DNA of 11,965 bases from a virus (Duplodnaviria; Heunggongvirae; Uroviricota; Caudoviricetes), in IMG/VR virus record IMGVR_UViG_2778261184_000010. One strand, 5' to 3'. A model generated the notes under the pieces. That model was not told where the DNA came from. It ran no database searches and worked only from the letters and a program-made list of their open reading frames with translations. Position 1 is the first letter of the stretch; the number at the start of each line of letters is the position of its first letter. Shown here in pieces: positions 441-1,890 of this stretch. Position numbers and translations under genes: made by a program.

Positions 441-485
441 TTTGTAGCGATACATATTATATATATATCATTCTCAGGTGCGTAC
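441..485 (+). promoter_or_regulatory. Candidate promoter/5' leader of the GGDEF gene in the 45-bp spacer between IS1 IRL and the start codon
   Basis: TA-rich tract 451-470 (tacatattatatatatatca) gives several -10-like hexamers; possible -35-like TTGGCA (427-432, inside the IS1 end) or TTGTAG (442-447). Shine-Dalgarno AGGTG at 476-480, 5 nt before ATG 486. No single confident -35/-10 pair. Confidence 0.25.
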
Positions 486-1817
486 ATGATTATCAACCAG
501 GTACCTATAAAAATAAAAATCTTCATCTTTTTATTTTCATGCATCTCTATTATATTTTTATTACTGCATGAAAATAATGGAATATACATAACACAAACAA
601 CACAAATAAGTTATAGTGTTTTCATTATTGGGCTTTTTTTCATAAACCTGATGATTTTTATTTTTCTATTGCTTTACTATGTTTCTAATCAGAGACAAAG
701 TTATCTCTTAATTCTTTCATTCGCGTTTTTGAGCAACACGTATTATTTATTAGAAGTGGCTATTATTTCTTTATCTCCGTTAGGTAACGATTTATCTACA
801 ATCTATCAGAAATCAAATGATATCGCAATATATTATCTATTCCGTCAGTTCAGCTTTATATCTATAATCTTTCTGGCTGTTTATTCCACCAATGTTAAAA
901 ATAAAAGTGTTTTAGAAGATAAAAGAAATATAATAATTGTTGTTTTGTCAATATTAATTCTTTTTATTACTCCGTTTGTAGCAAAAAATCTAAGCAGTGA
1001 CAATATAAAATATAGTCTTAATATTATACAATACTCGCTGAATCGTCATTTGCCGACGTGGAATATCGTGTACACCAAAATAATATCAGTATTTTGGCTT
1101 GTATTACTTATCAGCTCATGCATCAGCATACGTAATTACTCAAAAATATGGTTGTGTATAATACTTATTAGTATAGTGTCAGTATGCAATAATCTAATTT
1201 TATTGTATTTTATTGATAAATCCCATCCTGCATGGTACATGACAAAATTTCTTGAATTGATATCAATGATTTATATCATTTCAACACTCATGTATTATGT
1301 TTTCAGGAAATTAAATCATGCTAATCATATGGCAATTCATGATCCACTAACGAATACATACAATAGAAGATACTTTATTGACTCATTGAAGAATATATCA
1401 AAACACCATGATTTCTCAGTAATAATGTTAGATATTGACAGTTTCAAAAGCATCAATGACAAATGGGGGCATCATATGGGTGATCAAGTCATAGTAATGG
1501 TTACCAGAATAATAAAAAAATCCATCAGGAAAGAGGATATATTAGGGCGCTTAGGCGGTGAGGAGTTCGGTATTATCATTAAAGGTAATACTCAAAAGCT
1601 CTTGCTATCAATTGCAGAGCGAATCAGAAAAAACATTGAAGAGCAATGCTCGGAAAAATTATTATCGCATGGACCTGAGAAAATAACTGTCAGTATTGGT
1701 TGCTTTACTTCAAAAGAGAATAATCTCAGCCCATCTGAAATGTTAGTCAATGCCGATAAAGCGTTATATCAAGCCAAAAGAACCGGAAAAAACAAGGTGA
1801 TAATTCACTCAAAATAA
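486..1817 (+). CDS. Membrane-anchored diguanylate cyclase: N-terminal ~8-TM domain plus C-terminal GGDEF domain
   Basis: 443-aa ORF with a good RBS. Residues ~1-275 contain about 8 hydrophobic helices. The C-terminus carries GGDEF hallmarks: DPLTNTYNRRYF, LDIDSFKSINDKWGH, active-site GGEEF, and an RxxD I-site (RKED) five residues upstream of GGEEF. The gene is markedly AT-rich by eye compared with the neighbouring tail genes. Confidence 0.9.
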   Translation: MIINQVPIKIKIFIFLFSCISIIFLLLHENNGIYITQTTQISYSVFIIGLFFINLMIFIFLLLYYVSNQRQSYLLILSFAFLSNTYYLLEVAIISLSPLGNDLSTIYQKSNDIAIYYLFRQFSFISIIFLAVYSTNVKNKSVLEDKRNIIIVVLSILILFITPFVAKNLSSDNIKYSLNIIQYSLNRHLPTWNIVYTKIISVFWLVLLISSCISIRNYSKIWLCIILISIVSVCNNLILLYFIDKSHPAWYMTKFLELISMIYIISTLMYYVFRKLNHANHMAIHDPLTNTYNRRYFIDSLKNISKHHDFSVIMLDIDSFKSINDKWGHHMGDQVIVMVTRIIKKSIRKEDILGRLGGEEFGIIIKGNTQKLLLSIAERIRKNIEEQCSEKLLSHGPEKITVSIGCFTSKENNLSPSEMLVNADKALYQAKRTGKNKVIIHSK

Positions 1818-1844
1818 ACACCTTTTTAAAATACAGCCCCAATA

Positions 1845-1881
1845 AACTGCAGAATATTATCCCATATAATATCCTGCAGTT
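1845..1881. terminator. Palindromic stem-loop between convergent GGDEF and tfa genes (candidate bidirectional terminator)
   Basis: aaCTGCAGaatattat / cccat loop / ataatatcCTGCAGtt: 8 bp + 1 mismatch + 7 bp stem, 5-nt loop. Lies 28 nt after the GGDEF stop and 10 nt after the tfa stop. Flanking U-tracts are weak on both strands, so terminator function is uncertain. Confidence 0.4.
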
Positions 1882-1890
1882 CGTAATGCA

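Follow-up and report, generated by a model that had tools for sequence, protein, structure and literature searches.

IS1 separates a gene that is very likely dgcX, carried as lambdoid prophage cargo, from its native upstream region

The window analyzed here is a DNA stretch of 11,965 nucleotides from IMG/VR virus record IMGVR_UViG_2778261184_000010 (Caudoviricetes), and the gene under study is the AT-rich diguanylate cyclase (DGC) gene close to its left end. Very probably this gene is dgcX, an accessory MASE4-GGDEF diguanylate cyclase carried as cargo of a lambda-like prophage and separated here from its native upstream region by the insertion sequence IS1. dgcX is already known, having been first reported in 2014 and taken up again by studies of 2017 and 2023. 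What is new here is modest: the att-bounded position, an IS1 copy at -45 relative to the ATG, recurrent IS1 insertions, divergent relatives at other lambdoid sites, and the prediction of a G-protein-coupled receptor (GPCR)-like MASE4 domain. DgcX is a proposed contributor to the strong adherence and biofilm behavior of enteroaggregative and O104:H4 Escherichia coli. Correct recognition of the gene matters for annotation because of this proposed role, and its current label reads merely 'sensor domain-containing diguanylate cyclase'.

The window protein is exactly that of H10407, an enterotoxigenic E. coli (ETEC) strain. Over positions 441-2500, the window and H10407 differ by a single nucleotide at position 1178; this change is synonymous because the exact window protein is encoded in H10407. 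The protein also shares 438 of 443 residues with WP_000586343.1 of enteroaggregative E. coli (EAEC) 55989, the product of the sole GGDEF gene in the attB region of that genome. The substitutions, from the window to 55989, are P190S, I194T, K245Q, S319N, and I440T. dgcX was defined in EAEC LB226692, 55989, and HUSEC041, with H10407 and E24377A as further attB carriers (PMC4287979); O104:H4 is likewise named as a carrier of dgcX at attB (Richter et al., 2014; PMC4287979). The published primer dgcX-u-18 (Table S3 of PMC4287979) matches window positions 477-499 exactly, up to its engineered HindIII site. Primer dgcX-d-412, with engineered bases and a one-base offset, had no match in H10407 within 3 mismatches and was not used as evidence. 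The listed length of DgcX is 443 amino acids (PMC12355678), and the E359A and E360A numbering of the published mutants (PMC10459773) fits the GGEEF motif at residues 357-361. The DgcX accessions are CAU96679.1, WP_000586343.1, and WP_000586341.1 (55989/O104:H4/H10407 entry).

The reading frame starts with an ATG 6 nucleotides downstream of AGGTG and contains no frameshift or internal stop. PF17158 (MASE4) matched the protein with 124.8 bits against a cut-off of 28.4, covering model positions 4-237 of 239, and PF00990 (GGDEF) matched with 150.9 bits (cut-off 23.8). The NCBIfam scan gave matches at the level of the GGDEF domain only, with all equivalog models far under their cut-offs. The inhibitory site (I-site) RKED is followed by ILGRL and then by GGEEF; this five-residue spacing is the canonical I-site spacing. 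A DIDSFKSIND motif occupies residues 316-325. Residues D316, K321, N324, D333, R355, and K431 align with substrate and metal ligands of PleD (1w25), which we take to be D327, K332, N335, D344, R366, and K442, respectively. The family alignment shows no variation at D316, K321, N324, R355, and K431 or at the I-site residues R348 and D351, and at least 90% of its sequences keep D333.

An AlphaFold2 model of the full protein was generated with 19 family members as input (predicted local distance difference test score, pLDDT, 77.9). The model contains eight long helices (residues 8-27, 40-67, 72-96, 103-134, 142-168, 194-214, 220-241, and 249-284) and a short β-hairpin around residues 181-193. Helix 1 and MASE4 together form an eight-helix bundle, and the last helix runs unbroken from the membrane into the GGDEF domain. 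A hydropathy scan gave seven separate stretches above threshold, with the helix at about 72-96 falling under it. Invariant residues of the membrane domain include N111, S171, Y176, W192, N236, and E257, and at least 90% of the aligned sequences have R120. A Foldseek search of the full model against the Protein Data Bank (PDB) matched GGDEF domains only, and a MASE4-only model was then made separately. The MASE4 sensor domain is predicted from modeling to be a GPCR-like seven-helix bundle with a β-hairpin resembling extracellular loop 2 (ECL2). Judged from its motifs, the protein is a membrane-anchored GGDEF enzyme, intact and belonging to the product-inhibited class.

These data bear out the main points of a preliminary description of the gene, which was made from the DNA letters and their open reading frames (ORFs). 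It had proposed a protein of 443 residues with about eight transmembrane helices and a complete GGDEF domain; eight AlphaFold2 helices are found, and GGEEF, RKED, and DIDSFKSIND were all located. Its tentative naming of DgcX is confirmed by the 99% identity to 55989 DgcX, the exact H10407 protein, and the matching published primer, and, as it had noted, the window holds no partner genes. Its remark that the N-terminal domain has no obvious ligand still applies, but the domain itself is assignable, to the curated family MASE4 (PF17158).

Since the MASE4-GGDEF layout is common to the window protein, DgcT, and CdgI, the gene could instead be a core-genome DGC (DgcT) or a degenerate receptor for cyclic di-GMP (c-di-GMP) like CdgI, and not foreign cargo. 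We regard this as almost certainly wrong. The window protein is just 37% identical to DgcT and 38% identical to CdgI, and the gene is missing in K-12 and in 86% of the complete E. coli genomes. It lies inside an att-bounded prophage in its closest relatives (see below), and its GGEEF motif is intact, unlike that of CdgI. These results refute the reading.

The dgcX coding sequence has a GC content of 29.6% (30.9% at third codon positions); the value is 54.5% for the tail genes at 1891-11415 and 47.5% for tfa next to dgcX. The AT-rich block spans about 441 to about 1890, the first of these being the first base past the end of IS1 and the second the last base before tfa, with which dgcX is convergent. 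Window positions 442-1890, used as a megablast query, matched 771 of 5426 complete E. coli genomes, with H10407 among the best matches, and in 648 of the 771 the identity was 99% or higher. In 585 genomes, ybhB and dgcX fell in one contiguous match. From 441 to 11492, the window is colinear with the H10407 prophage and 99.9% identical to it, except for a short part of stf that is present in H10407 but lacking in the window.

The gene order in H10407 and 55989 is bioA-ybhB-(745 bp)-dgcX-tfa-stf-lom-J, and the 745-bp interval comprises the lambda att core together with the P arm and the sib/tI hairpin. Where this DNA of H10407 aligns to lambda 27439-27759, the identity averages 86%, and the similarity stops directly after the 15-bp core. 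This att core, GCTTTTTTATACTAA, occurs exactly twice in 55989, in the ybhC-int interval and in the dgcX-ybhB interval. At the 55989 locus (L016), the two cores lie at 1139 and 46848 and dgcX at 44876-46207, i.e. 641 bp inside attR. The dgcX slot in 55989 and H10407 is thus located between tfa and the P arm/sib, where lambda carries ea47/ea31/ea59. Because the gene lies inside attR and between tfa and the P arm/sib, dgcX is true b-region cargo. No att site can be seen in the window itself, where IS1 hides the attB/ybhB side; the lambdoid tail genes are present, and the H10407 gene is at attB. The preliminary description had placed a gene far more AT-rich than the tail genes, convergent with tfa, in the position of the lambda b region; the GC contents differ as stated, and the position corresponds to the tfa-attR interval of the closest relatives.

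Richter et al. propose hitchhiking of dgcX by specialised transduction (PMC4287979). The att-bounded position means that normal excision would carry dgcX, which is slightly stronger than the hitchhiking statement in the literature, and ordinary lysogeny can spread the gene. In several genomes (including those with loci L024 and L026), a heavily decayed prophage has retained dgcX and tfa; this retention during phage decay suggests a host benefit. IMG/VR contains 17 short prophage-type contigs with dgcX, and no dgcX match was found among PLSDB plasmids.

A partial IS1 copy stands at each end of the window, the two being inverted relative to each other. The left one stops at 440, 45 bp before the dgcX ATG, and the window aligns with H10407 and 55989 from 441 on. 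The left IS1 shows 97% identity to the IS1A annotated in H10407, and its ORF at 110-385 on the minus strand matches the PHROG transposase family phrog_1191. The two arms are 95% identical with 23 mismatches, and both insA ends face inward. Colinearity with H10407 ends at 11492, where the right IS1 splits L 23 codons before its stop. Because a tail gene is split, the prophage is damaged, and the prophage of the source strain was probably unable to build tails. The window ends lie inside both IS1 copies, with the outer flanks and target duplications falling beyond; these edges may be assembly breaks. The preliminary description had given the coordinates 441-1890 exactly but overlooked the IS1 copies ending at 440 and starting at 11493, which change the assumptions about expression and show the prophage damage.

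Inverted IS1 copies around 441-11492 could also mean that an 11-kb IS1 composite transposon moves dgcX together with the tail genes. IS1 composite transposons include Tn9 and Tn1681, the IS1 copies being inverted in Tn1681. TUM2820 likewise has dgcX between a pair of inverted IS1B copies, where it adjoins terminase genes and not ybhB. We nevertheless find a composite transposon improbable here: the segment is colinear with the H10407 attB prophage and 99.9% identical to it, as two in-place insertions would give, and the two IS1 copies are different variants. Moreover, complete E. coli genomes, the fetched loci, IMG/VR, and JGI metagenomes gave no match to the left IS1/dgcX junction, and complete E. 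coli genomes gave none to the right IS1/L junction. Two simple insertions would predict a 9-bp direct repeat, TTTGTAGCG, around the left IS1.

IS1 is present just upstream of dgcX in three further complete genomes, at -168 in YD786, -50 in TUM2820, and -17 in EC05. These three copies have the same orientation as in the window and different junctions. Such alleles are rare (3 of 771), and the shared orientation (4 of 4 with the window) is not statistically significant. IS1 prefers AT-rich DNA, and the recurrent insertions near dgcX may reflect only this preference. TUM2820 and EC05 have a common IS1B variant and DgcX allele; the -17 junction could derive from that at -50 via an IS1-adjacent deletion.

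A reporter with the -412 to +18 fragment showed the highest activity among all E. coli DGC genes, and the native dgcX promoter is very strong and partly RpoS-dependent (PMC4287979). Of that fragment the window keeps only -45 to +18. The 745 bp of native intergenic DNA contain a single good sigma-70-like site, TTGACA-17-TAGTAT at -101 to -73, which is conserved in 55989 and no longer adjoins dgcX in the window. A promoter scan of the plus strand at window positions 300-587 found no promoter-like site. A TTGGCA lies 8 bp from the left IS1 tip; the -10 candidates at 16-18 bp spacing from it are poor, and none was called by the promoter scan. Judging from this arrangement, dgcX expression in the window strain may differ from the published very high level.

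A stronger proposal, compatible with the identification as dgcX cargo, is that the gene is silenced or strongly down-tuned here, the IS1 at -45 having removed the promoter so that little c-di-GMP is made. We give this a substantial chance, somewhat short of even. All DNA upstream of -45 is replaced by IS1, including the sole strong sigma-70-like native site; insA of the left IS1 is directed away from dgcX, so that no read-through from the transposase promoter is expected; and two other genomes have comparable IS1 insertions, at -50 and -17. On the other hand, the ORF is intact and its protein equals that of H10407, so any silencing would be recent. The TTGGCA of the IS1 end could also give a hybrid promoter, hybrid promoters formed at insertion sequence ends being a described phenomenon.

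DgcX overexpression induces cellulose in a GGEEF-dependent manner, and motility was assayed on swimming plates (PMC10459773, with Figure 4D for the latter). We propose the following course of action for the encoded protein. dgcX would enter a cell by lysogeny as a self-contained AT-rich unit reaching from tfa to the P arm of attP. The eight-helix MASE4 sensor would sit in the cytoplasmic membrane, joined via the helix at residues 249-284 to the cytoplasmic GGDEF domain. A signal sensed by MASE4 would alter the packing of helix 8 and thereby the geometry of the GGDEF dimer, in which two GGDEF domains would together join two GTP molecules to give c-di-GMP. Feedback inhibition by this product would act through the RKED I-site. 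The c-di-GMP formed would lead to more matrix, comprising cellulose, as shown in the literature, and possibly CsgD/curli, as proposed. In the window, the IS1 at -45 separates the gene from most of the 412-bp region behind the reported high expression.

Several points weigh against this account. Deletion of dgcX in Fec101 had a minor effect only (PMC10459773). The cited studies yielded no enzyme assay or c-di-GMP measurement for DgcX, whose activity is supported by motif-dependent phenotypes. The real promoter could lie in the retained 45 bp or form with the IS1 end, and no mapped dgcX transcription start was found in the cited dgcX studies. Among 50,697 deposited phage genomes there was no dgcX match, giving no support to a particle-forming phage as carrier.

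The gain might also go mainly to the phage, if c-di-GMP remodels surface polysaccharides and changes adsorption, resulting in lysogenic conversion or superinfection exclusion. dgcX lies at the prophage end shared with lom, another conversion gene, and DgcX-family genes occupy lambdoid slot ends at three integration sites. The relative with 67% identity adjoins nfrB-nfrA, genes for a polysaccharide system that depends on c-di-GMP and that phage N4 requires. Set against this are the lack of any PADLOC defence-family match or experimental link and the fact that the gene outlasts prophage decay, which points to a host benefit; a main benefit to the phage is accordingly judged a long shot. A defence-system reading was tried and rejected, the PADLOC families having no match to DgcX, Tfa, or Lom.

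In a large protein search, full-length relatives were found only in Escherichia, plus Citrobacter at about 40% identity, and the identity classes within Escherichia are 99, 95, 85, 81, 67, and 52%. The 51-52% class (loci L011-L013, 8001-9341) occupies the equivalent end of a Rac-type prophage, at another integration site, with uspF on one side and the prophage genes ynaE-pin-tfa-stf-lom-J on the other. In some E. coli, argU and ybcH-nfrA-nfrB, at the DLP12 integration site, have a single gene between them, an AT-rich member of the 67% class (about 28% GC; loci L008-L010, 8001-9335); a tRNA-Arg(tct) lies at 9638-9714 of L009. A scan of GTDB with one genome per species, in which only close relatives were detectable, returned E. 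coli, an evidently contaminated contig of a metagenome-assembled genome (MAG), and one weak unrelated match, and no donor species. The MAG contig (L005; JAEWTL010000008.1, 2500 bp) is labeled Bacillota and encodes DgcX at 99% identity; most likely it is E. coli contamination of the bin.

NfrB at the locus of the 67% class carries an MshEN domain. MshEN domains bind c-di-GMP, and a functional link between the DgcX-like gene and this domain is conceivable. In K-12, cdgI, a MASE4 paralogue, lies directly upstream of dgcJ (L003, 4386-7001), and DgcJ is a cyclase reported to act locally on NfrB. The cdgI-dgcJ adjacency and the nfrBA-adjacent DgcX-like gene hint that MASE4 proteins are linked with the Nfr system.

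A more tentative proposal, which we hold to be possible but rather unlikely as a whole, is that DgcX belongs to an Escherichia-restricted MASE4-GGDEF family that has long served as cargo between tfa and att (at lambda attB, Rac, and argU) and outlives its phages. The family would combine a GPCR-like sensor with an AT-rich promoter region in which IS1 inserts repeatedly; such insertions could dampen a c-di-GMP source that is constitutively strong and costly. In the published picture, dgcX is a hitchhiker beside prophages or no part of a mobile element; parts of the family proposal go beyond this.

The features of the window are collected in Table 1. The hairpin between dgcX and tfa has a folding energy of -15.8 kcal/mol (z = -5.3 versus shuffled sequences), and a strict intrinsic-terminator scan made no call on it. 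Rfam IS009 (RF02111) matches full length with 225 bits at 1934-2132 on the minus strand, within the tfa coding sequence. The stf ORF encodes 1113 residues in the window versus 1132 annotated in H10407 (L001, 17034-20432); their alignment falls into two blocks, with about 50-60 bp of H10407 stf left unaligned.

Table 1. Features of the 11,965-nucleotide window and of its dgcX gene.
Feature	Position	Strand	Basis or remark
Partial IS1	1..440	-	insA-side terminal inverted repeat ~418-440, insA, start of insB; cut by window edge
Remaining native dgcX upstream DNA, 45 bp including AGGTG ribosome-binding site	441..485	+	identical to H10407 and 55989
dgcX coding sequence	486..1817	+	443 amino acids plus stop; ORF list, translation, Pfam, NCBIfam
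MASE4 integral-membrane sensor domain	603..1307 (residues 40-274)	+	Pfam PF17158, E 4.6e-36
GGDEF catalytic domain	1332..1796 (residues 283-437)	+	Pfam PF00990, E 3.5e-44; TIGR00254; PleD 1w25 alignment
I-site RKED (RxxD)	1527..1538 (residues 348-351)	+	motif scan; aligns with PleD RxxD
Active-site GGEEF	1554..1568 (residues 357-361)	+	motif scan
Inverted repeat (hairpin), candidate terminator between convergent dgcX and tfa	1845..1881		RNA fold
tfa, tail fibre assembly	1891..2475	-	phrog_105, E 3.6e-100
stf, side tail fibre	2475..5816	-	phrog_295, phrog_3279
lom (Ail/Lom outer membrane protein)	5875..6474	-	phrog_108, E 3.8e-110
J, central tail fibre	6545..10042	-	phrog_31
Tail assembly genes I (10103-10774) and K (10672-11415), overlapping	10103..11415	-	phrog_32, phrog_30
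L, minor tail gene, last 23 codons and stop, cut by IS1	11421..11492	-	translation SGCKFRNNVGNFGSFLSINKLSQ followed by stop, equal to the H10407 L C-terminus
Second partial IS1, different variant	11493..11965	+	inverted repeat I1, arms 1-440 and 11493-11932

Natural alleles exist in which IS1 lies between dgcX and the strong promoter region. Given such alleles, the presence of dgcX alone does not predict high c-di-GMP output.

Compared with known systems, the window gene is closest to DgcX of 55989, O104:H4, and H10407, with which it shares the length of 443 amino acids, 99-100% identity, the MASE4-GGDEF layout, GGEEF, RxxD, and a convergent tfa neighbor. Unlike in 55989 and H10407, IS1 lies upstream of -45 in the window, and ybhB, attR, and the -412 to +18 fragment are not contiguous with the gene. 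As in Tn9 and Tn1681, an IS1 pair surrounds cargo, with the inverted arrangement of Tn1681; in contrast to these transposons, the window unit shows no sign of movement, its IS1 copies are different variants, and its cargo is colinear with an in-place prophage. The lambda b region and lambdoid morons (lom, bor, and ea47/ea31/ea59) resemble dgcX in the tfa-attP map position, in being non-essential for the phage, in a composition unlike that of the backbone, and in having their own transcription signals, dgcX being convergent to the late genes. Lambda differs in carrying ea47/ea31/ea59 in the slot and no GGDEF gene, and no deposited phage genome has dgcX. DgcT (YcdT) of K-12 likewise combines MASE4 with an active GGDEF domain with an I-site and can be aligned over 408 residues, at the 37% identity given above. 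It is a core gene beside pgaABCD and very weakly expressed (PMC4287979; PMC5635695), whereas dgcX is an accessory gene borne by prophages, with strong expression from the native promoter. CdgI (YeaI) is the nearest K-12 paralogue, its 38% identity extending over 426 residues, and has MASE4 and an intact I-site; it is a c-di-GMP binding protein with a degenerate active site (PMC5635695), the motif being of EGEVF type, whereas DgcX has GGEEF.

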